Position numbers and translations under genes: made by a program
The notes under the pieces: model-generated
Seen by the model: only the letters and a program-made list of their open reading frames with translations
Databases searched by the model: none
What the model was told of the DNA's origin: nothing
Shown: piece after piece, positions 3,626 to 58,859 of the stretch
Layout: each line of letters starts with the position of its first letter
Numbering within the stretch: position 1 is the stretch's first letter
Assembly: GCA_963781585.1 (NCBI GenBank)
Contig: CAWAGQ010000007.1
Coordinates: 128,001 to 192,000, forward strand
Direction of reading: 5' to 3'
Source of the DNA: an uncultured Gemmatimonadaceae bacterium
Lineage (GTDB): Bacteria > Gemmatimonadota > Gemmatimonadetes > Gemmatimonadales > Gemmatimonadaceae
Length of the DNA: 64,000 nucleotides

Positions 3626-5047
3626 TCAGGTCGGCCAGTGCGACAACGCCTTCAGGACGTTGATTCTGCCAGCGCCGTACTGTGGGTCCGCACCGGCCGG
3701 TCCGAGGTCATCGACGCCGTTCAACAGCAGCTGCTTGATCTGCGCCGGACGTCTCTTGCCGTACCTGGCGATCAATTGCGCGACGAGTCCTGTGACGTGC
3801 GGCGCAGCCAGCGACGTGCCATCGCCACCGAGAATGAGCGTCCCGCTGATGCATGGAGCCGTCAGAGTGTTGCCGACGACGGCCAGGTAGTGCCTCGCGC
3901 AGAGCGCGGAGACGTAGCCGAAGTCGCTCCCGCCCGGCGCCGCGACGGTGATCGCCTGTCGCCCGTAATCGCTGTAGGGGGCGAACGCATCCACGTTGCC
4001 CCACGGACCCTGGAATGGCGCGCCGGACGTCGGTCCCGTCGCGGACACACAGATGACATGCGGGGCCTCGCAGACCACCGCGAGCGTGCGACCATCGTTG
4101 TCGAGGTTCATGGCGTCATTGCCGGCGGCGACGACGACCACCATCCCCGCGGCGTGGGCGTAGTTGAACACGTGATTCATGAGACCGACGAACCTGCCCA
4201 AGCCGGCCTTGTCGATTCCGCCGGGCACGCCGAGGCTCATGTTGGCCACGTCGGCGCCATGATCGGCGGCCCAGATCAGGCCAGCGAGAATGCCGCCGAG
4301 CGACCCGCTTCCGGTTGCGCCGAGCACCTTTACGCCGATCAGATGCGTCCGCGAGCTGACGCCGGCGAATACGACGGCGTTCGATGCAACCTGCGAGGCC
4401 ACCAGCGTCCCGTGGCCACCCAGATCGTCTATCTCGTTACGCCCCGGGAACAGCGCGTTGACAAGCGCATCATCGCTCGGAACGAACGAAGTCGACCGCG
4501 ACAGGTCCACCAGGCCGTTGAGATCGAGGTTGTCGTAATCGAGTCCGCTGTCGAGGATGGCAGCCGTTACCGACGCCGATCCGAGGTTGCCCGCCGCCCA
4601 CGCTGCCGGCGCGTAAATGGCGCGCATGTTCCACTGCAGGCCGAAGACGGCTGCGCCAGCCGGATTCGTCGGACTCAGTGCCGAGACAACCTCGGGCATG
4701 CTCCCGAGCAGAGTGGGCTTCTCCATCTGGACGACGACATCATCGTAGACGCGCGCGACACCGGGGGCTCGCGCGAGCGTCGCGGCCGCGTCGGCTGTGA
4801 GTCCACTGACGGCGGCAAAGCCCCCGTGTTCGACCACGAAGTCGACCGCACCACCTAACGAGGCCACCGTCGCCGCGAAGCCCGTGCGGACGGGGCCGTT
4901 GAATTCGACGATCGATCGACCCACAGCCGCCGACTGAACGGCCGCGTTTGCGCGTACCACCCGAGCAAGCGACGGTGCGACCGGATCCCCGGCACACGCG
5001 AAGAGGGCGATGGCAAGCGCGGCCACGGAAAGCACAGAGATCTTCAC
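3626..5047 (-). CDS. S8 subtilisin-like serine peptidase (secreted/lipoprotein)
   Basis: Catalytic motifs ILDSG, GHGT, AAGN, GTSLAAPHVTG; probable GTG start at 5047. Confidence 0.9.
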   Translation of the reverse strand: MKISVLSVAALAIALFACAGDPVAPSLARVVRANAAVQSAAVGRSIVEFNGPVRTGFAATVASLGGAVDFVVEHGGFAAVSGLTADAAATLARAPGVARVYDDVVVQMEKPTLLGSMPEVVSALSPTNPAGAAVFGLQWNMRAIYAPAAWAAGNLGSASVTAAILDSGLDYDNLDLNGLVDLSRSTSFVPSDDALVNALFPGRNEIDDLGGHGTLVASQVASNAVVFAGVSSRTHLIGVKVLGATGSGSLGGILAGLIWAADHGADVANMSLGVPGGIDKAGLGRFVGLMNHVFNYAHAAGMVVVVAAGNDAMNLDNDGRTLAVVCEAPHVICVSATGPTSGAPFQGPWGNVDAFAPYSDYGRQAITVAAPGGSDFGYVSALCARHYLAVVGNTLTAPCISGTLILGGDGTSLAAPHVTGLVAQLIARYGKRRPAQIKQLLLNGVDDLGPAGADPQYGAGRINVLKALSHWPT

Positions 5048-12979: not shown

Positions 12980-13010
12980 GCCTAACGCAAAGGTGAACGA
13001 GCCCGTCTCA
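12980..13010 (-). other. attC half-site (L'/R' side)
   Basis: Minus strand GGGCTCGTTCACCTTTGC-GTTAGGC, a core site upstream of a minus-strand gene; R'' arm absent. Confidence 0.4.
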
Positions 13011-39362: not shown

Positions 39363-40952
39363 ATGAGGAGGGGAGGAGTGAACGTCTTGAAGCCGTTTCT
39401 GCGCATCACCATCGCCACGCTGCTGGGCAGCGCGACGCCGCACCGCGAGATCGAGCGGCGGACCGGCGTCGATCGGAAAACCATCCGGCGCTACGCCCTG
39501 AAGGCAAATGCCCCCGGGGTGGCCACCGGCTCCGTTGCCGTCAACGACCAAACTCCCCCACCCCGGCCACCGGCTTTGGACGGGACTGCGGCCCCGGTGC
39601 GACCGGCCCTGACCGTCTCGGCGTGCGCGGCACACCGCCCGTGGATCGAGGCGCAGGTCGCGCTCGGGCGGAACGCCATGAGCATTTTCCAAGACCTGGT
39701 CGAAGCCCATGGCTTTGCCCATCGGTACAACTCCGTGAAGCGCTTTGTGGCGACGCTGAAGGCGCGCGCGCCCGAGCGCTACGACGTGTTGGAGTTCTTG
39801 CCGGGCGAAGAAGCGCAGGTCGACTACGGCCGCGGTGCGCCAACGAACCGGCCGTCGGGCACGGCCCAGAAGCGCCAGCGGCCGTACCTGTTCGTGATGA
39901 CGCTCAAGTATTCGGGGAAGAGTTTCCGGAAAGTGGTGTGGAAGACCAGCCAAGTGATCTGGGCCGAGCTGCATGAGGAAGCGTTTCGGGCGCTGGGCGG
40001 GTGTCCCCAATACATCGTGTTAGACAACTTGAAAGAAGGCGTGCTCCGCCCCGACTTGTACGAGCCGGAGCTCAACCCGGTGTACGCCGCGTTGCTGGCG
40101 CACTATGGCGTCGTGGCCGATCCGTGCCGAGTCCGTGATCCGAATCGCAAAGGGACCGTCGAGAGCGCGATTCAGCACACGCAGGGCACGGGGCTCAAGG
40201 GCCGCACCTTCGACTCGATCGAGGCGCAGAACACGTGGCTCGTGCATTGGGAGGAGCGGTGGGCCGCGCTCCGCATTCACGGGCGGAAGAAGCGGCAGGT
40301 GCTCGAGCTCTATCGGGAAGAGCAGCCGCACCTCCGCCCGCTGCCGCTCGAGGGATTTCGCTTCTTCACTCAGGGCGTGCGCACGGTCGACGACGCGGGG
40401 CTCGTGCAGATCGAAGGCTCGTATTACGCCGCGTTGCCCGCGGCGCTGCACAGCGTGGTCACCGTCCGGATCTACCCGCGCGCAATCGAGATCCTCGACC
40501 GTGAGAACCGCGTCGTGCGCCGGCATGAGAAAGCCCTGCGGAAGGGCGCCTTCGTGATGGCGGGCTCGGATCGGCTCTTCAACCCGTCCCGCGAAACCAC
40601 GCGCGTGCTGGCGCGCGTCGAGTTGATCGGCCCGCACACGGCGGCGCTCGGGCGCGCCCTCTTCGCCCAGCTCGGCCGGCCCGGCAACCGGGCCCTCTAC
40701 GGCCTGGCGAGCCTGACGCGCACCTATCCACGCGCGGACATCGAAGCGGTGTGTGAGCGGATGCTCGCGGCGCAATGTGTGTCCTACGCGGCCGTCAAAG
40801 GCGCGCTCGCCCGACGCGCGGACGCTCCGCCCGCTGACCCACCGCTCACGCAATCCGGTCCGGGCATCCGGGCCATCACCGAATATCAGGCCTTCTGGGA
40901 AATGCACTCAGAGGCGCCCGCCCCGATGCTCTCACCGGAGAACACTCCATGA
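39363..40952 (+). CDS. istA: IS21 transposase
   Basis: PGEEAQVDYG, DNLK, PNRKGTVE (DDE). Confidence 0.93.
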   Translation: MRRGGVNVLKPFLRITIATLLGSATPHREIERRTGVDRKTIRRYALKANAPGVATGSVAVNDQTPPPRPPALDGTAAPVRPALTVSACAAHRPWIEAQVALGRNAMSIFQDLVEAHGFAHRYNSVKRFVATLKARAPERYDVLEFLPGEEAQVDYGRGAPTNRPSGTAQKRQRPYLFVMTLKYSGKSFRKVVWKTSQVIWAELHEEAFRALGGCPQYIVLDNLKEGVLRPDLYEPELNPVYAALLAHYGVVADPCRVRDPNRKGTVESAIQHTQGTGLKGRTFDSIEAQNTWLVHWEERWAALRIHGRKKRQVLELYREEQPHLRPLPLEGFRFFTQGVRTVDDAGLVQIEGSYYAALPAALHSVVTVRIYPRAIEILDRENRVVRRHEKALRKGAFVMAGSDRLFNPSRETTRVLARVELIGPHTAALGRALFAQLGRPGNRALYGLASLTRTYPRADIEAVCERMLAAQCVSYAAVKGALARRADAPPADPPLTQSGPGIRAITEYQAFWEMHSEAPAPMLSPENTP

Positions 40953-41716
40953 CGATGTCGATCACCGAACTCGAACAGGCGTTACGCGGCCTGCGGCTGT
41001 CGGGCATGAGCGCGACGCTCCAAGCCCGCGCCCTCCAAGTCACGACGCACGAGATGGAGTTTCTCGAGGCGGTCTCGTGGCTGGTCCAAGACGAACTCGA
41101 TCGCCGCCACTCCCGGCTCCTAGAGCGGCGCTTTGCGCTCTCCGGTCTGCCCGACCGCAAAGACTTGAAGACGATCGACTGGAGCTACAACGCGCGCTTG
41201 CCCAAGCGCGACGTGCTCGAACTGGGCACGCTCCAATTCATCGACGCCAAGGAAGACGTGCTCGTCCTCGGTCCGCCCGGAACGGGAAAGAGTCATTGTG
41301 CCAAAGCGCTGGCGCTGCTCGCCGTCCAGCGTGGCTACAAGGTCTTCTACCGCGAGGCGCATCAGCTCGTCGAGGACATCGCCGAAGCGCGCGAGCTCGC
41401 GCAGCTCCGCCAGTATCGCCGCCAACTGAAGACCGCCGACCTCCTCCTGATCGATGACCTCTTCTTGCGCAAACTCCCGCCGCAGGCCGGCGATGAACTC
41501 GCGGAAGTCCTGATGAGCCGCTACGAGAAGGCCTCGACGATCGTCACCTCCAACCGGCCCCTCGAGGATTGGGCCCGTCTGCTCGGCGATGCGGTGGTCG
41601 TTACTCCACTCCTCGACCGCCTCATGCACCACGGCCATTTACTAAAGTTTGAAGGCAAGAGCTGGCGCCTGAAGGAAGCCGCCGCCCGAGTTGCGAAACG
41701 CACCTCGGCCGCCTAA
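40949..41716 (+). CDS. istB: IS21 helper ATPase
   Basis: Walker A GPPGTGKS, LLLIDD, TSN, LLDRLMHH. Confidence 0.95.
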   Translation: MTMSITELEQALRGLRLSGMSATLQARALQVTTHEMEFLEAVSWLVQDELDRRHSRLLERRFALSGLPDRKDLKTIDWSYNARLPKRDVLELGTLQFIDAKEDVLVLGPPGTGKSHCAKALALLAVQRGYKVFYREAHQLVEDIAEARELAQLRQYRRQLKTADLLLIDDLFLRKLPPQAGDELAEVLMSRYEKASTIVTSNRPLEDWARLLGDAVVVTPLLDRLMHHGHLLKFEGKSWRLKEAAARVAKRTSAA

Positions 41717-42122: not shown

Positions 42123-42232
42123 GCCTAACGTCGCAATTCAGCTGCGGCGCATCACATAGAATGCGGCTGGCGGGCGCAGACCGCCAGACGCTACCGACCG
42201 AAAACGCCGACAGCTGCAATTGCTGGTTATAC
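42123..42232 (-). other. attC site
   Basis: GCCTAAC..gcaattcagctgcggcg / cgccgacagctgcaattgc..GTTATAC; brnA stop lies in R''. Confidence 0.92.
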
Positions 42233-42861: not shown

Positions 42862-42979
42862 GTATAACGTGCCGCTTCAGCCGCGGCGAATCGATAGAAG
42901 ACCGCGCGCTGGACGTGAGCGAAAGCGAACGCCTGCGCGCACACCATAGCTTCGCCGTCTGCTGCAACGTCTGTTAGGC
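42862..42979 (-). other. attC site
   Basis: GTATAAC..cttcagccgcggcgaa / ttcgccgtctgctgcaac..GTTAGGC. Confidence 0.9.
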
Positions 42980-44172: not shown

Positions 44173-44266
44173 GCCTAACGCCTAGCGTTCAGCTGCGCGG
44201 GCAGTCCAATCAAAGCGGCGAAGCCGCCACCATGGCGCCCGCGTCGGCTGCAACGCGTGGTTGAAC
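44173..44266 (-). other. attC site (host arms; R'' now supplied by the element end)
   Basis: GCCTAAC..gcgttcagctgcgcgggc / gcccgcgtcggctgcaacgc..GTT|GAAC. Confidence 0.9.
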
Positions 44267-44385
44267 TCAATCCGCCTTCGGCGTCTAGCACTGCGATTTC
44301 GGTGCGTGCCCTTACTCCACCGTGGCTGATGAAGTTGGCGGAGTGATGTCCAATGTTCACGCTGAACCCCTTCAGCGAGGACACC

Positions 44386-45258
44386 ATGACACCGCTCCGC
44401 CAACGCATGATCCAGGATCTCCAGCTCCGCGGCTACTCCGATCGCACCGTCGAAGCCTACGTCCGCTCCGTCGCTCAGCTGGCCCGCTTCTATCATGCCT
44501 CACCCGACACCCTCACGGAAGAGCAGCTCCGCGACTACCTCCTTCACCTCACCACCGTTCAGAAGGTCGCCCGGGGCACCCACACCATCGCCCTCTGCGG
44601 CCTCAAGTTCTTCTACCAGCACACGCTTGGGCGCGAGTGGATGGTCCTCAAGGTGGCCCGGCCCAAGGGGGAGAAGAAGCTCCCGGTCGTCCTGAGCCGC
44701 GGCGAGGTCTGGCAAATCCTGGATCATCTTCGACTTCCCGTCTACCGCGTCTGCCTGACGACCATCTACGCCTGCGGCCTCCGCCTCTTGGAGGGCGCCC
44801 GCCTCCAGGTCCCCGATGTCGATGGTGCCCGGAAGCTGCTCCACATTCACGGCAAGCGCCGCAAGGATCGCTACGTCCCGCTCCCGGACGCCACCCTCGC
44901 GCTGTTGCGAGAGCACTGGCGGACGCACCGTAATCCCCTCTGGCTCTTCCCCACGATCACCCGATCCCATGCCGGCGTCCTGAGCGACCCGGCCGTGGGC
45001 CCCATCTCCCGCGCCAGCCTTCAGAGCGCCTTCGTCCGTGCTGTCAGGGCCAGCGGTATCCACAAGCGCGCGCACGTCCACACGCTCCGGCACAGCTACG
45101 CCACGCACCTGCTGGAGGCCGGTGTCAATCTGCGATTGATCCAGGAGTATCTGGGCCACACCAGTCCCAGAACAACCGCCATCTACACCCACCTCACCCG
45201 GGAGCTCCACGACGCCGCGCTGAGTCCGATCAACGATCTCATGGCGCGTCGCTCTTGA
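44386..45258 (+). CDS. Tyrosine recombinase (Xer/phage integrase family, N-terminal SAM-like domain)
   Basis: GLRLLE, GKRRKDR, HTLRHSYATHLLE, LGH, TTAIY; no IntI-specific insertion. Confidence 0.93.
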   Translation: MTPLRQRMIQDLQLRGYSDRTVEAYVRSVAQLARFYHASPDTLTEEQLRDYLLHLTTVQKVARGTHTIALCGLKFFYQHTLGREWMVLKVARPKGEKKLPVVLSRGEVWQILDHLRLPVYRVCLTTIYACGLRLLEGARLQVPDVDGARKLLHIHGKRRKDRYVPLPDATLALLREHWRTHRNPLWLFPTITRSHAGVLSDPAVGPISRASLQSAFVRAVRASGIHKRAHVHTLRHSYATHLLEAGVNLRLIQEYLGHTSPRTTAIYTHLTRELHDAALSPINDLMARRS

Positions 45259-45305
45259 GTCGTTAGGCCCGTCGGTTCAGACAGCCACTGCCCCCGAGAC
45301 GGGCC

Positions 45306-46475
45306 GTGGTGGAGCTCGCGGACATCCTCCGCAGGGCGGGGCCCGAGTATCTGCGGACCCACGCCGGACCGCTCCTGCCCTCCCACCGGAGGGCCATGAA
45401 CGACATCGTCCAGTGTCGCACACCGGCCCTCGGTGGCTCGCTCTACCGCTGCGACGAGTGCGCTGCCCTCGCGTACCGCTACCACTCCTGCCGCAACCGC
45501 CACTGTCCCACGTGCCAGGACGATCGGGCCCAGAGATGGTTGGAGCGAGTCCGGCAGCGGCTTCTCCACACCGGCCACTACCTCCTCACGTTCACCCTCC
45601 CACAGGGGCTGCGGTCCGTCGCCCGATCGCACCAGCGCCTGGTATACGCCGCCCTTCTACGCGAAGCAGCTGCCACTGTCCTCACGCTCTGTAAGGACCC
45701 GAACTGGGTGGGCGGCACTCCCGCCATCCTCGCCGTACTCCACACCTGGTCGCGCACCCTGGAGCACCATCCCCACGTCCACCTCCTCGTCAGCGCCGGC
45801 GGCCTCGGCGCGGACGGCACGGCCTGGATCAAGCCCGCTCATTCTCGTTTCCTCGTCCCGGGCTACATGCTCTCCCCGATCTTCCGGGCGAAGATGCGCG
45901 ACGCGTTCGCACGAGCCGGCCTCGCCGGCGAGGTCGATCCCGGCGTGTGGACCCACCGCTGGACGGTCCACGTCAAGGCCATCGGCACCGGGCAGCACGC
46001 CGCACTCTATCTCTCCCGCTACATCTACCGCGTCGCCCTCACCAACCACCGCATCGAACGCTTCAGCAATGATCGCGTCACCTTCCGCTATACCCACGCA
46101 CGCACCGGGGAGACCCGGCGCCTGACGCTGCCGGTGAACACCTTCATCGGCCGTTTCCTCCAGCACGTCCTCCCCCGAGGCTTCACCAAGGTCCGCTCCT
46201 ATGGTCTCCTGAGCCCCGGCCGCCGCACGCAGCTGGAACGGGCCCGCGATCTCCTCGAGCTTCACGCTCGCGACGGCGTCCCGAAGTCCGCGAGCAACAT
46301 CCCGGCGCAGACTCCGGTCGCGCACGACCAGCCACCAACCGCGCCGGACCCCTGCTGCCCGGTCTGTCGGCGCGGTCGCCTCGTGGTCATCGACCACTTC
46401 ACCCGATCGCGCGCGCCGCCGGACTCGTGGTCCTCGCCGTGCTCCACCCCACCGACTGCCACAGTCGCCGCATGA
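45306..46475 (+). CDS. IS91-family (HUH/Y2) transposase with N-terminal Zn-binding domain
   Basis: CDEC...SCRNRHCPTCQ, HPHVH (HUH), YLSRY (Y2), RSYGLL. Confidence 0.93.
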   Translation: MVELADILRRAGPEYLRTHAGPLLPSHRRAMNDIVQCRTPALGGSLYRCDECAALAYRYHSCRNRHCPTCQDDRAQRWLERVRQRLLHTGHYLLTFTLPQGLRSVARSHQRLVYAALLREAAATVLTLCKDPNWVGGTPAILAVLHTWSRTLEHHPHVHLLVSAGGLGADGTAWIKPAHSRFLVPGYMLSPIFRAKMRDAFARAGLAGEVDPGVWTHRWTVHVKAIGTGQHAALYLSRYIYRVALTNHRIERFSNDRVTFRYTHARTGETRRLTLPVNTFIGRFLQHVLPRGFTKVRSYGLLSPGRRTQLERARDLLELHARDGVPKSASNIPAQTPVAHDQPPTAPDPCCPVCRRGRLVVIDHFTRSRAPPDSWSSPCSTPPTATVAA

Positions 46476-46688
46476 TCCGCGCGCGTGGTCCGGCGAAGCC
46501 GCGCCCCATGATCGCCGGAGCGCACGGCCAACGCTGCGCCGGCCTCAATCGCGCGCGGCTGGTCCGGTGCGCGGCCCCCGGTCTGGGCTCGGCAGGCCGC
46601 CTGACGCTCGCTTCGCTGGGCGTCCTGGACGTCGCCTCGGGTCACGCACCCGCCTGAAACTCCAAGGCCCTGCCGCGGGGCGGACTGA

Positions 46689-46746
46689 GTTCAACCCCAG
46701 ATTGTGCCGCGGCTATCGCGCGGCACGAATCTTTACTTCGTTAGGC
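46689..46746 (-). other. Element-borne attC-like hairpin completed by host R''
   Basis: GTTCAAC ccc AGATT-GTGCCGCG gctatcg CGCGGCACgAATCT ttacttc GTTAGGC; single bulged base. Confidence 0.8.
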
Positions 46747-47435: not shown

Positions 47436-47546
47436 GCCTAACGCCCGCAATTCTGCTGCGGCGCGATCACAACAATGCGGCTGGCGAATGGAATGAGCCA
47501 GCCGCGCACCGCATTATGCGCCGACAGCAGCAATTGCTCGTTGTGC
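47436..47546 (-). other. attC site
   Basis: GCCTAAC..gcaattctgctgcggcgc / gcgccgacagcagcaattgc..GTTGTGC. Confidence 0.9.
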
Positions 47547-47549
47547 CGC

Positions 47550-47819
47550 GCGGCGTAGAAGAAGCGGAACCACCAGGGCGTCGCGCTCGCGGCGCCGGCA
47601 TGGACACCGGTCTGTCCACCCTCCGCAAAGTGCACATCGGAGAGCGCGTCAGCGAACGCTTTCGCGGACTCGAAGCGATCGGCGGGGAGTTCTCAAGTGG
47701 CGGTCGTGCTTGAGGTCCTGGGCGAGGTAGACGGTGGTCATGCCGCCCTGACCGAGTTATTCCTCGATCCTGCAGCGGCCGGCAAGAGCGGCGTTGAGCC
47801 GTTCGGTATTGTTTCTCAT
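47550..47819 (-). pseudogene. Third tandem Ser/Thr kinase, collapsed (internal stop plus large deletions)
   Basis: MRNNTERLNAALAGRCRIEE*LGQGGMTTVYLAQDLKHDR joined to PADRFESAKAFADAL; ATGA overlap with the upstream kinase stop. Confidence 0.85.
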
Positions 47820-50463
47820 TTTGCTGCTCCGGTCACGTTCTCGAACACCACAACGCGATCTGGCAACACCCGGCCCAGCTCTCGATGAAACACGAAACGT
47901 TGGTCGTCAGCTGCAAGGCTGTATTCGACCACAAGGGATAGCGAGCGAAACCGCTCCGCTGAAAACAGGACGTGTGGTCTATCGAACACGAATGTCGGCC
48001 CGGGCGTCAGCGGCACGCTCACCATGTTGGCGTTGCCGTCGCGGAAGAACAGCTCGCGGCCACTGTGACTCCACACTGGGTCCGACCCGCCGTCCGGCGA
48101 CACCAGCCAATTGCCGTCGCTCGTGTTCGGGAAGGGCCGCACCCGGACCTGCGCCCGGCCGGTTTCGAGCGTGGTGTACGCCAACCAGCGCCCGTCCGGC
48201 GAGACCGCCGGTTGCGATTCCTGGTACGGCGTGACCACCAGCGGGACTCGCGTGGTGTCACCGGTGCGGCGCACGCCGATCAGGTCGGAGGAGCCGCCAC
48301 CACCGTTGCGATACACGATCCAGCGATTGTCCGCGGTGAAAAAGACTTCGTGCACCTGCTCCGGATCGTAGAGCAGGGGTCGCTCGGGCTCCGACGCATC
48401 GGCGCGACGGATGTACGCCTCGCGCTTGCCGGCGCGATCCGCCATGTAGGCGACGGAGGTTCCGTCAGGTGTCCATTGCGGCCGGATGCCGCCATTGAAG
48501 CTCAACTGCGTCATCCGCCCGTTGTCCAGTTGCCGCACCCACACCTGCCCGCCGCGTGTTACCGCGAGCCGGCGACCATCGGGTGAGAGCTTGAAGGCGC
48601 CGTTCGGTGTCAGCTGGTCGTTCCAGCCGGGGTCCACCGGGCGGACCACGCCTTGTCGCGTGACCCAGACGACGTCAGTGGTGTCGTGAGCGTCGCTTTC
48701 CGCCATGTAGATCAGCGTGCCTTGCGACGACGTGGTGAAGTCGGGAACGAAGTCAGGCGCGCCCACTGACCCGAATACGACGCGCTCGACAAGCATCCGT
48801 GGCTCACCGGACAAACGCAGGTTGCGGGCGTCAAACGACTGGATCATCAGCGCACCGTTGCGCTCGGGCGCAAACACCAGGTATCCCGGCACATACTCGG
48901 CGTACGATCCGCGGGTCAGCACACGGTACTTGCCGGTGGCCTGGTCGGCGATGGCGATCTCAGAGCGCGCCGCATTCGCCCGATACTTGATGACGAAGAG
49001 GATGCCACGCCCGTCGGGCAGCGCGCACGGAAAGACGTGGTCGTCCTCGCCCGCCGCCGAGTCCACCGTGGTGAAGCGAACCGGCGTGCCGCCCTGCGCG
49101 GACACCTTCACGATGCCGGTGCGGCCGGAACCGTGAGCGTAGATGAACCCATCGGACGACCACGTCGCGCCGGCGTAGCCAATCCCGGTCGTGGCCACCG
49201 GAACCACAGGTCCGCCGTCCAATGGCACGACCTTGATGGTGCCGCGCGGACTCACGAAGCCGATCTTCGCGTTGTCGGGCGAGAAAAACGGAACTTCGGC
49301 ACCCTCCGTACCGGCGATCTCGACCGGCGACAACTGGTCGCGTGGCAGGACGAACAGCCGCCGCTCACCGCCCGCACCCTCGTGCAGGTACGCCAGGCGT
49401 GAGCCGTCCGGCGACAGTGCGATGCGGCGGAACCAGGCGCTCACCTCCCGCCCCTCAGGAAGTTGGAGCATGTACCGTCGCACGGGCGACTCCGGCGACG
49501 CACGTGTCCCACGCCAGCCCCACGCCGCCAGCGCTAGCGCGACGACGCCAACGGCGGCCACGGCAACGAACACGGGGTCGCGGAACCTGCCCAGGGCGGA
49601 TGCGGGCTGCACGCGCGTGGTTCCCGCTGCGGTGAATGCCGGGTTGACCAGGGCATCGGCAAACGCCTTGGCGGAGTCGAAGCGATCGGCCGGCACCTTC
49701 TCGAGCGCCTTGCGCAGTGCGTCGGCGACGTTGGGTGGCACCGACTTGCGGTGCTGCGTCACATCGCCGGCCGGCTCGGCGATGATCTTCATGATGATCT
49801 GCTGCGCGCTGCCACCCAGGTGCGGCGGCTGGCCAGCGAGCATCTCGTAGAGCACCGATGCCAGCGAGTAAATGTCGCTGCGACCGGTGATCTCCTTCTC
49901 CGCAGTGGCTTGCTCGGGCGACATGTAGTGCGGCGTGCCGAGCGAGAGGCCGGTCTCGGTCATGCGTCCGCCGGCGGCGGCAGAGACAGCGAGCGCAATG
50001 CCGAAGTCGGCCACCATGGGGCGACCGTCGTGGAGCAGGATGTTCTCGGGCTTGATGTCGCGGTGGATGACGCCGTGGCGGTGGGCGTAGTCCAGCGCGT
50101 CAGCGACCTGCGTGGTGATGCGAACGGCTTCGTCGACGCCGAGTTGTGTTTCGCGATCGAGTTTCCCGCGCAGGGTCTCCCCTTCTATATATGGCATCAC
50201 GTAGTACAGGAATCCGTCCGCGGTGCCGGAGTCGAAGAGCGGCAGGATGTGCGGGTGCTGGAGCGCGGCGGTGGTCTTGATCTCCACGACGAACCGTTCC
50301 GCGCCGAGCACGGCGGCGAGCTCGGGCTTCAGGACTTTGACGGCGACCTTGCGGTCGTGCTTGAGGTCGGCGGCGAGGTAGACGGTGGCCATGCCGCCCT
50401 GACCGAGCTGCTTCTCGATCTTGTAGCGACCCGCGAGTGCCGCGTTGAGGCGCTCGGTGCCGC

Positions 50464-50467
<4 letters not shown>
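47816..50467 (-). CDS. Ser/Thr protein kinase + TM + TolB/PD40 beta-propeller
   Basis: LGQGGMATVY, HRDIKPEN, DFG, SPE; SPDG repeats. Confidence 0.95.
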
Positions 50468-53094
<2,627 letters not shown>

Positions 53095-54754: not shown

Positions 54755-54865
54755 GCCTAACGCTCCAGCATAAGCTGCCCCGCATCCAACAATCGCGCGC
54801 GCTGGCGCAGCACAGCGCGCGCTTCCTTCAGAGTATGCGGGGTCAGCTTCATGCTGTTGTTGAAC
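54755..54865 (-). other. attC site (host arms; R'' now supplied by the element end)
   Basis: GCCTAAC..cagcataagctgccccgcat / atgcggggtcagcttcatgctg..GTT|GAAC. Confidence 0.9.
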
Positions 54866-54984
54866 TCAATCCGCCTTCGGCGTCTAGCACTGCGATTTCG
54901 GTGCGTGCCCTTACTCCACCGTGGCTGATGAAGTTGGCGGAGTGATGTCCAATGTTCACGCTGAACCCCTTCAGCGAGGACACC

Positions 54985-55857
54985 ATGACACCGCTCCGCC
55001 AACGCATGATCCAGGATCTCCAGCTCCGCGGCTACTCCGATCGCACCGTCGAAGCCTACGTCCGCTCCGTCGCTCAGCTGGCCCGCTTCTATCATGCCTC
55101 ACCCGACACCCTCACGGAAGAGCAGCTCCGCGACTACCTCCTTCACCTCACCACCGTTCAGAAGGTCGCCCGGGGCACCCACACCATCGCCCTCTGCGGC
55201 CTCAAGTTCTTCTACCAGCACACGCTTGGGCGCGAGTGGATGGTCCTCAAGGTGGCCCGGCCCAAGGGGGAGAAGAAGCTCCCGGTCGTCCTGAGCCGCG
55301 GCGAGGTCTGGCAAATCCTGGATCATCTTCGACTTCCCGTCTACCGCGTCTGCCTGACGACCATCTACGCCTGCGGCCTCCGCCTCTTGGAGGGCGCCCG
55401 CCTCCAGGTCCCCGATGTCGATGGTGCCCGGAAGCTGCTCCACATTCACGGCAAGCGCCGCAAGGATCGCTACGTCCCGCTCCCGGACGCCACCCTCGCG
55501 CTGTTGCGAGAGCACTGGCGGACGCACCGTAATCCCCTCTGGCTCTTCCCCACGATCACCCGATCCCATGCCGGCGTCCTGAGCGACCCGGCCGTGGGCC
55601 CCATCTCCCGCGCCAGCCTTCAGAGCGCCTTCGTCCGTGCTGTCAGGGCCAGCGGTATCCACAAGCGCGCGCACGTCCACACGCTCCGGCACAGCTACGC
55701 CACGCACCTGCTGGAGGCCGGTGTCAATCTGCGATTGATCCAGGAGTATCTGGGCCACACCAGTCCCAGAACAACCGCCATCTACACCCACCTCACCCGG
55801 GAGCTCCACGACGCCGCGCTGAGTCCGATCAACGATCTCATGGCGCGTCGCTCTTGA
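54985..55857 (+). CDS. Tyrosine recombinase (copy 2)
   Basis: Translation identical to 44386-45258. Confidence 0.93.
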   Translation: MTPLRQRMIQDLQLRGYSDRTVEAYVRSVAQLARFYHASPDTLTEEQLRDYLLHLTTVQKVARGTHTIALCGLKFFYQHTLGREWMVLKVARPKGEKKLPVVLSRGEVWQILDHLRLPVYRVCLTTIYACGLRLLEGARLQVPDVDGARKLLHIHGKRRKDRYVPLPDATLALLREHWRTHRNPLWLFPTITRSHAGVLSDPAVGPISRASLQSAFVRAVRASGIHKRAHVHTLRHSYATHLLEAGVNLRLIQEYLGHTSPRTTAIYTHLTRELHDAALSPINDLMARRS

Positions 55858-55904
55858 GTCGTTAGGCCCGTCGGTTCAGACAGCCACTGCCCCCGAGACG
55901 GGCC

Positions 55905-57074
55905 GTGGTGGAGCTCGCGGACATCCTCCGCAGGGCGGGGCCCGAGTATCTGCGGACCCACGCCGGACCGCTCCTGCCCTCCCACCGGAGGGCCATGAAC
56001 GACATCGTCCAGTGTCGCACACCGGCCCTCGGTGGCTCGCTCTACCGCTGCGACGAGTGCGCTGCCCTCGCGTACCGCTACCACTCCTGCCGCAACCGCC
56101 ACTGTCCCACGTGCCAGGACGATCGGGCCCAGAGATGGTTGGAGCGAGTCCGGCAGCGGCTTCTCCACACCGGCCACTACCTCCTCACGTTCACCCTCCC
56201 ACAGGGGCTGCGGTCCGTCGCCCGATCGCACCAGCGCCTGGTATACGCCGCCCTTCTACGCGAAGCAGCTGCCACTGTCCTCACGCTCTGTAAGGACCCG
56301 AACTGGGTGGGCGGCACTCCCGCCATCCTCGCCGTACTCCACACCTGGTCGCGCACCCTGGAGCACCATCCCCACGTCCACCTCCTCGTCAGCGCCGGCG
56401 GCCTCGGCGCGGACGGCACGGCCTGGATCAAGCCCGCTCATTCTCGTTTCCTCGTCCCGGGCTACATGCTCTCCCCGATCTTCCGGGCGAAGATGCGCGA
56501 CGCGTTCGCACGAGCCGGCCTCGCCGGCGAGGTCGATCCCGGCGTGTGGACCCACCGCTGGACGGTCCACGTCAAGGCCATCGGCACCGGGCAGCACGCC
56601 GCACTCTATCTCTCCCGCTACATCTACCGCGTCGCCCTCACCAACCACCGCATCGAACGCTTCAGCAATGATCGCGTCACCTTCCGCTATACCCACGCAC
56701 GCACCGGGGAGACCCGGCGCCTGACGCTGCCGGTGAACACCTTCATCGGCCGTTTCCTCCAGCACGTCCTCCCCCGAGGCTTCACCAAGGTCCGCTCCTA
56801 TGGTCTCCTGAGCCCCGGCCGCCGCACGCAGCTGGAACGGGCCCGCGATCTCCTCGAGCTTCACGCTCGCGACGGCGTCCCGAAGTCCGCGAGCAACATC
56901 CCGGCGCAGACTCCGGTCGCGCACGACCAGCCACCAACCGCGCCGGACCCCTGCTGCCCGGTCTGTCGGCGCGGTCGCCTCGTGGTCATCGACCACTTCA
57001 CCCGATCGCGCGCGCCGCCGGACTCGTGGTCCTCGCCGTGCTCCACCCCACCGACTGCCACAGTCGCCGCATGA
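55905..57074 (+). CDS. IS91-family HUH/Y2 transposase (copy 2)
   Basis: Translation identical to 45306-46475. Confidence 0.93.
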   Translation: MVELADILRRAGPEYLRTHAGPLLPSHRRAMNDIVQCRTPALGGSLYRCDECAALAYRYHSCRNRHCPTCQDDRAQRWLERVRQRLLHTGHYLLTFTLPQGLRSVARSHQRLVYAALLREAAATVLTLCKDPNWVGGTPAILAVLHTWSRTLEHHPHVHLLVSAGGLGADGTAWIKPAHSRFLVPGYMLSPIFRAKMRDAFARAGLAGEVDPGVWTHRWTVHVKAIGTGQHAALYLSRYIYRVALTNHRIERFSNDRVTFRYTHARTGETRRLTLPVNTFIGRFLQHVLPRGFTKVRSYGLLSPGRRTQLERARDLLELHARDGVPKSASNIPAQTPVAHDQPPTAPDPCCPVCRRGRLVVIDHFTRSRAPPDSWSSPCSTPPTATVAA

Positions 57075-57287
57075 TCCGCGCGCGTGGTCCGGCGAAGCCG
57101 CGCCCCATGATCGCCGGAGCGCACGGCCAACGCTGCGCCGGCCTCAATCGCGCGCGGCTGGTCCGGTGCGCGGCCCCCGGTCTGGGCTCGGCAGGCCGCC
57201 TGACGCTCGCTTCGCTGGGCGTCCTGGACGTCGCCTCGGGTCACGCACCCGCCTGAAACTCCAAGGCCCTGCCGCGGGGCGGACTGA

Positions 57288-57345
57288 GTTCAACCCCAGA
57301 TTGTGCCGCGGCTATCGCGCGGCACGAATCTTTACTTCGTTAGAC
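57288..57345 (-). other. Element-borne attC-like hairpin completed by host R'' GTCTAAC
   Basis: Same hairpin as 46689-46742, ending in GTTAGAC. Confidence 0.8.
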
Positions 57346-57857: not shown

Positions 57858-58859
57858 CTAATCCGACAATCCTGGTCCACTCAGTAACCGATCCACCGGG
57901 CTCTGAACGCCAAGCCTGCCGCGATTCAGAACGTGCGTGTAGATCATCGTCGTCGACACATCACGATGTCCCAGCAATTCCTGCACAGTGCGAATGTCGT
58001 AACCGGCTTCGAGCAGGTGCGTCGCAAATGAGTGCCGCAAGGTGTGACAGCTCGCCCGTTTCCCGATCCCACTGGCGCGCACTGCCCTCGCCATTGCACG
58101 CTGAATTGCGGTCTCATGATAATGATGCCGGCGGGTCGTGCCGGTCTCGCGCTGCTGATAGCGGCGCCGCGCGGGAAAGACCCATTGCCACGCCCATTCC
58201 GTCGCGGCGTTCGGGTACTTCCGGACCAAGGCGTCCGGAAGGTCCACCGCACCGCCGCCCACTGCCAGATCGCTGGCGTGCAGTGCCCGCACGCGCTCAA
58301 GGTGCTCGCGCAATAATGGTACCGCGTGAGTGGGCAGCATCGTGACGCGGTCACGCGCCCCCTTTCCGCGACGCACCCGGATTTCTCCGCGGTCGAGGTC
58401 CAGGTCTTTCACCCGCAGCGTCAGGCACTCCATCAGCCGCAGCCCGCTTCCATAGAGAAGCATTCCTACCAGGCGCGGCACGCCATCGAGCATGCGCAGC
58501 ACGCATCGTACCTCTCTTTCGCTGAGAACCACGGGTAACCGGTGCGGGGCCCGAGCCTTCGGCACATCGCCGAGGCCGTCGAGTGGCCGATCGAGCACGT
58601 GCTTGTAGAGGAACTGCAACGCGGCGAGTGCCTGTGCCTGCGTGGCCGCGGACAGCTTGCGCTCGACCGCCAGCGCGGTGAGGAACTGCACGACCTCACG
58701 TTCGCCCAAATCCTTCGGATGACGGAGGCCGTGGAACTTGACGAAGCGCCGCGCCCAACCGACATACGCCTGTTCCGTTCGCGGGCTGAAATGGCCGAGC
58801 CGCAGATTCGCGCGCAAGGAATGCAGTAGTTTCGATTTGGGCTGCACGAGGTCCCCCAC
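57858..58859 (-). CDS. intI: Integron integrase
   Basis: [20 protein letters not shown], IntI-specific insertion [10 protein letters not shown]...[40 protein letters not shown]. Confidence 0.97.

Follow-up and report, generated by a model that had tools for sequence, protein, structure and literature searches.

A bulged hairpin at an interrupted integron attC site in an uncultured Gemmatimonadaceae bacterium: probable ori end of an IS91-family element

In an integron cassette array of an uncultured Gemmatimonadaceae bacterium, a bulged hairpin flanked by heptamers that resemble the R boxes of attC sites lies at the right end of an inserted element. The question raised by this locus is whether the hairpin belongs to the integron or to the element. 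The first-pass annotation proposed that the hairpin acts as a replacement attC for the upstream cassette, that the insertion turns one attC into two and that excision by IntI would leave the hairpin behind; an IS91 ori hairpin was named as the alternative. Here, the window is the whole 64,000-nt stretch of DNA that was analysed, and all coordinates count from its first letter. The source genome (G000) consists of 5.7 Mb in 17 contigs, with a completeness of 93.5% and a contamination of 7.2%. The hairpin is probably, at roughly four chances in five, the subterminal oriIS palindrome of an insertion sequence of the IS91 family, from a subgroup with a tyrosine recombinase gene upstream of a Y2 HUH tnpA gene. 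The features of the locus are given in Table 1.

Table 1. Features of the two element copies in the window, their host attC sites and the integron integrase.
Feature	Position	Strand	Description and evidence
Element copy A	44260–46739	+	2,480 bp, IS91 family, int + tnpA; boundaries by the IS91 rule
terIS end	44260–44276	+	GTTGAACTCAATCCGCC, left arm of the 16/17 inverted repeat
int	44353–45258	+	301-aa tyrosine recombinase, Xer/IntI type; Pfam Phage_integrase 3e-33, SAM_4 6e-23
tnpA	45306–46475	+	389-aa IS91-family Y2 HUH transposase; Pfam Y2_Tnp 7e-45, Zn_Tnp_IS91 3e-27
Right inverted-repeat arm	46679–46695	+	GGCGGACTGAGTTCAAC, ending in an RYYYAAC-like box; kept in relatives
Putative subterminal oriIS hairpin	46699–46732	+	5 bp, bulged G46727, 8 bp (13-bp stem, 46699–46711/46719–46732), 7-nt loop (46712–46718); fold, covariation
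Spacer, stem to element end	46733–46739	+	TTACTTC, 7 nt; 7–8 nt in 11 folded homologues
R'' box of host attC	46740–46746		GTTAGGC on the plus strand, GCCTAAC in array orientation; GTTA is the target tetranucleotide
Rest of interrupted host attC	44173–44259	+	R' box GCCTAAC and arms with two bulges; R1 model
Element copy B	54859–57338	+	Own hairpin at 57298–57331
Host attC of copy B, arms	54755–54858
Host attC of copy B, R'' box	57339–57345		GTTAGAC
Integron integrase IntI	57858–58859	-	Only one in the genome; TIGR02249, 434.7 bits, above cut-off

The element and its ends

Three copies of the element are present in the genome: copies A and B in the window and copy C on contig C13. They are 100% identical over 2,483 nt, with GTTGAAC as the left and GTTAG as the right limit of identity, and this is counted as evidence that the element has probably been active recently. 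In copy A the first four nucleotides are GTTG, the terIS tetranucleotide, and the target GTTA follows directly after the oriIS end. The two ends form an inverted repeat in which 16 of 17 positions pair (GTTGAACTCAATCCGCC with GGCGGACTGAGTTCAAC), as had been annotated. A scan of the window for such repeats with three or fewer mismatches gave four matches against 0.18 expected, and these are both ends of the two copies.

The recombinase (Int) shares 35% identity with the IntI of the window, and the alignment has a gap at the position of the IntI-specific insertion, which is seen in the window IntI. This insertion contacts extrahelical bases. Among NCBIfam models the top match of Int was the integron integrase, at 201.5 bits and below the 265-bit cut-off; among PDB entries it was IntI4 (2a3v; 7.6e-37), the second best being at 2e-23. 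With no IntI-specific additional domain and a score under the family cut-off, Int does not qualify as an integron integrase. For seven such recombinases from other loci, the best model was the integron integrase in four and XerA in three, and none reached the cut-off. TnpA matched the NCBIfam model transpos_IS91 at 353 bits (cut-off 125 bits), and its motifs are intact (HPHVH for HUH, YLSRY for Yx3Y and the N-terminal CxxC pairs). The pairing of the two genes extends across phyla: an Int-like match adjoins the tnpA match in 32 of 60 related loci, many of the others being cut by contig ends.

As described in the accessible part of PMC13181058, IS91-family elements have distinct oriIS and terIS ends and do not duplicate their target. 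Beside oriIS lies a target tetranucleotide with T in second position (CTTG, GTTC or GTCC), at terIS a cleavage tetranucleotide, and subterminal palindromes are located at oriIS. The same part of that source describes single-stranded circles, with the bottom strand active, and one-ended transposition at 1–14%. As far as can be read from sequence, the element fits every IS91 point. Like IS91, IS801 and IS1294, it encodes a Y2 HUH transposase with an N-terminal zinc-binding domain and has two different ends, with a subterminal palindrome downstream of tnpA and 7 nt from the oriIS end, a T-second tetranucleotide beside ori and a related one at ter (GTTA and GTTG in all three copies) and no target duplication, only the shared GTT being repeated. 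A further likeness to IS91 is the extra ORF upstream of tnpA (orf121 in IS91). In contrast to these three elements, the upstream ORF here encodes a 301-aa tyrosine recombinase, GTTA is used only in attC R'' boxes and a 17-nt terminal inverted repeat is present. ISfinder groups IS91-family members with an integrase gene (ISShvi3 and similar). The element is likened to these by its int + tnpA organisation.

Structure and conservation of the hairpin

On the minus strand, from 46746 to 46689, the sequence reads GCCTAAC-GAAGTAA-AGATTcGTGCCGCG-CGATAGC-CGCGGCACAATCT-GGG-GTTGAAC. This re-reading, with folds of both strands, agrees with the sequence, coordinates, bulged hairpin and R-box-like heptamers that had been annotated. 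When folded as DNA, the 58-mer has an energy of -13.7 kcal/mol on the plus strand and -14.1 kcal/mol on the minus strand, with Z-scores of -3.7 and -3.1, respectively; 0 of 200 and 2 of 200 shuffled sequences folded as well.

The right end was searched for in 401 genomes of the order, of which 18 matched at E ≤ 0.01; the matches were strong in six besides the genome of the window. Ten order loci were read from this search, including L066 and L083, both from the unpublished genome G358. Nine of the ten (seven of eight without G358) retain the inverted-repeat box and the hairpin along with the spacer, which is TTACTTC or differs from it by one base; the tenth, L067, is cut off inside the hairpin. 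The flank starts with GTTAG, again in nine of the ten loci (seven of eight without G358), the exception being L065, in which it is the left end of another element. For covariation, nine right ends were aligned, two Chloroflexi elements included. In the stem, 96.6% of cells are paired and both sides have changed in four of 13 pairs; 0 of 500 shuffles were as good, and slid controls of the alignment gave 32–56% pairing.

In distant homologues from other phyla the stem sequences are unrelated and the layout is kept, namely a YYCAAS box, 1–3 nt, a stem-loop, a 7–8-nt spacer and the element end (11 folded homologues besides the window's own; the end of L001 was read separately). The same layout is found in elements without a GTTA flank (L006, L034, L017 and L022), and the left flanks of L017, L022 and L034 showed no structure. 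A bulge is present without a GTTA flank in L006 and L034, and a GTTA flank without a bulge in L001, L003, L010 and L025; across these loci the bulge does not track attC targeting. Decayed right ends were found in related arrays (L062, two in L084 at G150:C98, 1792–1849 and 6736–7770, and L097), with the hairpin kept and the ter side or the whole body gone. Near-identical palindromes, GTTATGCAAAGCTTTGCATAAC and GTTATGGAAAGCTTTCCATAAC, flank L008 (Methylotuvimicrobium; at about 1452 and 4143–4230) and L001 (Rokubacteria; right flank). L008 sits in a perfect palindrome, and its restored target would be 34 nt long and perfect.

It is most unlikely that the stem-loop serves primarily as an intrinsic terminator for transcription of the int–tnpA operon. 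A simple terminator pattern was matched on the plus strand (a 10-bp stem, then ATCTTTACTT) and the stem-loop lies about 220 nt downstream of tnpA, but the tails of other subfamilies are not T-rich (GCTATTC, GCTAAAC and TACGAATT), and the fixed distance of 7–8 nt to the element end, together with the adjoining inverted-repeat box, points to an end function. A dual role, as terminator and as end, is possible. The position of the hairpin is that of an oriIS palindrome as given in the accessible part of PMC13181058, and its conservation extends beyond GTTA flanks; of the two readings offered by the first-pass annotation, the IS91 ori hairpin is the one that holds.

attC sites, insertion points and hybrid sites

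The cassette array of the window is on the minus strand. IntI and the cassettes share one strand (an 'inverted' integron layout), and the attC interrupted by copy B belongs to the cassette closest to intI. Read on the plus strand (the bottom strand), the genuine attCs consist of RYYYAAC-G, 2–4 nt, a stem of about 20 bp, 2 nt and GTTRRRY, and the 3' arm of the stem bears two bulges of one base each, separated by 6 bp. The cassette ends are complementary as usual (e.g. GTTATAC at 42226–42232 and GTATAAC at 42862–42868). The R'' box beside copy A is complementary to TTAGGC, the start of its cassette at 47436–47442, and a Phd/PIN cassette lies directly upstream of this box. The cassette region also contains an IS21-type pair (rve/Mu-transposase C-terminal domain and IstB ATPase; 39363–41716), and two 880-aa Ser/Thr kinase–PD40 genes (47816–53094) lie between two attCs, like one 5.8-kb cassette.

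Rfam at gathering thresholds gave 0 matches in the window, genuine attCs included, and so provided no usable attC model. Most attCs were also missed by a strict scan for RYYYAAC/GTTRRRY pairs and by an ungapped inverted-repeat scan, because of the bulges; a bulge-aware scan was noisy, but exposed the two-bulge signature. A covariance model, R1, was built from 13 attCs of G000 and describes the sites of this one genome, with a short calibration. At E ≤ 0.001 (150 of 9,111 candidates scored), R1 identified 25 sites genome-wide, three of which are the attCs interrupted by the element. Outside the integron, matches form clusters without an integrase (G000:C13:310–340 kb and C7:418–421 kb), with single sites on C2, C4, C5 and C6; copy C sits in one of the integrase-free clusters.

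Heptamers of the GCCTAAC type are over-represented in G000 (1,636 GYCTAAC sites), and an R-box-like heptamer alone is therefore weak evidence here. The 8-mer GCCTAACG is likewise over-represented, with 718 + 724 copies in 5.7 Mb and no strand skew (in the window, for example, at 12980, 19074, 27049 and 63102). It lies mostly in frame in genes (564 as nCG-TTA-GGC and 334 as nnG-CCT-AAC-G, with 441 outside a clear frame), and about 29% of all genomic GTTA tetranucleotides fall in GTTAGRC words. The 8-mer has the appearance of a signal at the DNA level, possibly a type of uptake sequence, and it matches the consensus R box of attCs.

All three copies of the element are inserted between the attC arms and the R'' box, in the same orientation with respect to the attC bulges, and their genes run antisense to the cassettes. 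As background, 5,675 GTTA and 1,636 GYCTAAC sites occur in the genome, against only 25 attC-model matches; with three of three insertions in attCs, the heptamer alone is no explanation. The same placement and orientation were found for E3, a full element in L084 of the order relative G150, and for L001 from Rokubacteria, the nearest relative from the collection scan; in both attCs the 3' arm, taken in element orientation, carries the two bulges. This clade uses the GTTA of integron attC R'' boxes, in one orientation, and the element enters the attC strand that is not recombined by IntI. The GC skew around the three copies was too weak to assign the lagging-strand template.

A further insertion point is seen in L065 (G350:C931, 1497–1563, minus strand), in which the hairpin end and TTACTTC are followed directly by GTTGAACTAAACCGC, the left end of a different int + tnpA subfamily. 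This looks like a tandem, with a second insertion at the same R'' GTTA and the hairpin of the first element in place of the attC arms; the second right end lies beyond the contig.

The annotation had placed the element inside an attC with cassette-like ends, and GTTGAAC and GTTCAAC are indeed complementary. Both hybrid sites left by the insertion were scored using R1 with filters off, over 98 kb, the ter-side hybrids being outside the training set. The ter-side hybrid (host R' box and arms with the GTTGAAC of the element) scored 64.1 bits in copy B (54755–54865) and 53.9 bits in both copy A (44173–44266) and copy C, compared with 41–92 bits for the training attCs and 20–50 bits for new genuine sites. 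According to the model, a high-scoring predicted attC does remain on the ter side after insertion, since the element brings in a consensus R'' box. The hairpin hybrid (46689–46746) scored 15.9 bits on the minus strand and 13.1 bits on the plus strand in copy A, and 14.3 and 11.7 bits in copies B and C (E values of 0.07–0.9). These scores are in the range of wrong-strand matches of real attCs and are slightly better on the non-recombining strand; the hairpin sites at related loci scored 11.5–17.6 bits. The genome-wide R1 scan (150 of 9,111 candidates scored) gave no match to the hairpin hybrid at E ≤ 0.001. The hybrid of copy A (15.9 bits, E = 0.07) is the top non-attC match of R1 in the 98 kb, and some real attC likeness therefore exists. 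The claim that one attC becomes two is thus borne out on the ter side and not on the hairpin side.

It is quite unlikely that the hairpin, the host R'' box and the GTTGAAC of the element make up a working replacement attC, by which the upstream cassette would stay mobile, the body and the host arms would form a cassette and excision would leave a seeding hairpin. Several features favour this. The boxes of the hairpin hybrid, GCCTAAC and GTTGAAC, conform to RYYYAAC and GTTRRRY around an imperfect palindrome, such heptamers being common in this genome. The single bulge, 5 bp from the stem base, has the arm and distance of the proximal bulge of genuine attCs; that it lies on the same arm as in the array had been annotated and agrees with both bulges of the genuine sites. 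The 54–64 bits of the ter-side hybrid and a host-attC segment shared by copies A and C, described below, also speak for it. Against it stands the score of the hairpin hybrid, 11.7–15.9 bits on R1 compared with 20–92 bits for genuine attCs, with the wrong strand scoring better. The geometry also departs from that of an attC: there is one bulge (at the proximal position only) rather than two, the stem has 13 bp rather than about 20 bp and the spacers measure 7 nt (R'' side) and 3 nt (R' side), compared with 2–3 and 3–5 nt, respectively, in genuine sites. The spacer asymmetry that had been described as swapped was thus confirmed, but not its figures (9/5 nt against about 5/7). Moreover, the same hairpin architecture is kept in relatives without a GTTA flank, and L001 and L003, which target attCs, have no bulge. 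Excision by IntI should leave RYYYAA↓C-CCC-hairpin (the arrow marks the crossover or cleavage point here and below) with foreign DNA upstream. No solo hairpin with such an IntI-type boundary was found in the ten right ends from 401 genomes of the order or in 18 metagenome loci (0 of 28 related right ends); 15 of the metagenome loci keep the box, and the other three (one locus in three contigs) are without it and have no GTTRRRY-type boundary. Neither the replacement of the upstream attC by the hairpin nor the hairpin left behind by excision is upheld by these results.

The segment shared by copies A and C is an 87-nt attC remnant beside terIS (44173–44259 in copy A; G000:C13:309999–310085, L086, in copy C). 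It is identical in the two and occurs nowhere else in the genome; the identity ends exactly at the R' box, as in a moved cassette, while the R'' boxes and both neighbouring cassettes differ. Simple transposition does not explain this pattern, and its explanation by a working replacement attC would require a pre-existing hairpin site at the second locus. The candidates are that IntI moved the element body and the arms together as a cassette, that one-ended transposition was followed by trimming through IntI, that gene conversion ran from the element into a paralogous attC and through it, or that the pattern is an assembly artefact. One-ended transposition as the sole cause was rejected on the grounds that the segment end is not a GTTN site and has no target arms beyond it. 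The arms were also ruled out as part of the element, as copy B and E3 of G150 have other arms.

Proposed transposition and relation to other attC invaders

With the hairpin taken as the oriIS palindrome, the steps of transposition can be proposed by analogy with IS91. TnpA would recognize the stem-loop and nick 7 nt past it, where the element end meets the flanking tetranucleotide; with position and strand adopted from IS91, the nick would be TTACTTC↓GTTA on the plus strand, which is TAAC↓GAAGTAA on the transferred (minus) strand. Rolling-circle displacement would pass tnpA and then int and reach the ter end, which reads GTTCAAC↓ on the minus strand, and the displaced minus strand would close to a single-stranded circle. 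In this circle the 17-nt inverted repeat could pair, placing the ter cleavage site beside the hairpin, and the circle would insert at a new GTTA in an attC top strand.

The boxes similar to RYYYAAC and GTTRRRY are read here as the outcome of the GTTG/GTTA cleavage rule and the terminal inverted repeat, and the stem as the ori palindrome; on this reading, the resemblance to an attC arises chiefly from the way IS91 ends are built and from the target. The hairpin itself is ordinary IS91 anatomy, and its attC look is explained by IS91 ends. The results do not support a role for it as a spare attC of the integron.

An unlikely alternative is that the hairpin and the paired inverted repeat are the site of the element's own IntI-like recombinase, which would join the folded circle junction to the folded attC top strand at R'' boxes (AA↓C). 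This would be cassette integration in mirror image, and the sole part of TnpA would be to make single-stranded DNA. Int is closest to integron integrases and is kept beside tnpA across phyla, the minus-strand circle junction and the attC top strand are alike (an AAC-ending box, a spacer, 5 bp and a bulge on the 5' arm) and the junction ambiguity (AAC) permits an AA↓C crossover; a tyrosine-recombinase crossover would account just as well for the 3 nt (GTT) by which the junctions are ambiguous. However, the GTTG/GTTA rule and the ori/ter anatomy class the element with IS91 members, the TnpA of which transposes without a tyrosine recombinase (accessible part of PMC13181058). In addition, Int is without the IntI insertion and is also found in relatives that have no attC-like flanks. 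A recombinase-mediated step at the hairpin is possible, since the closest solved relative of Int is an integron integrase.

With cassettes the element shares complementary RYYYAAC/GTTRRRY ends, a bulged stem and a place between cassettes. It differs from them in that its junctions are at the R'' box and not at the R' G↓TT crossover, its hairpin hybrid fails the genome's own attC model and it has transposition genes of its own, antisense to the array. The attC invaders described in the accessible parts of PMC9229058 and PMC8876359 are IS1111-attC elements (IS110 family) and group IIC-attC introns, which have a fixed orientation. They use a DEDD transposase or a retro-homing ribozyme, whereas the present element has an HUH transposase and a tyrosine recombinase. 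In the accessible part of PMC9229058, ISShvi3 in Shewanella is remarked to be 'adjacent to an attC site', and no IS interrupting attC sites is reported as detected in that study; the present analysis defines where and in which orientation the element inserts and what hybrid sites result. Apart from this remark, no description of IS91-family insertion into attC was found in the literature searched, as far as its accessible parts extend.

A broader reading that joins these observations is possible, though on balance doubtful. The IS91-type elements with int and tnpA would be a third, unrecognized class of attC-specific invaders, which would enter the non-IntI attC strand at the R'' box as a single-stranded circle with an attC-look-alike junction, the Xer/IntI-like recombinase reading folded attC-type structures for target choice. 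The ter-side hybrid would be treated as a normal attC, so that IntI could shuffle the IS and its arms as a cassette, which would explain the identical arms of copies A and C. The hairpin hybrid, in turn, would remain open to insertion by more elements, of which the L065 tandem would be an example.

With the hairpin read as an oriIS palindrome, the attC-specific IS91-type invader, the L065 tandem at a hairpin hybrid and the identical attC remnant at two copies are still of interest. If the element is an HUH rolling-circle invader of attC sites, folded attC DNA would be a general landing pad for single-strand-specific mobile elements, and target choice by IS91-type transposases could be approached beyond the tetranucleotide. 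With three of the 25 attC-model matches of this genome occupied, such elements may shape the cassette arrays of environmental bacteria.
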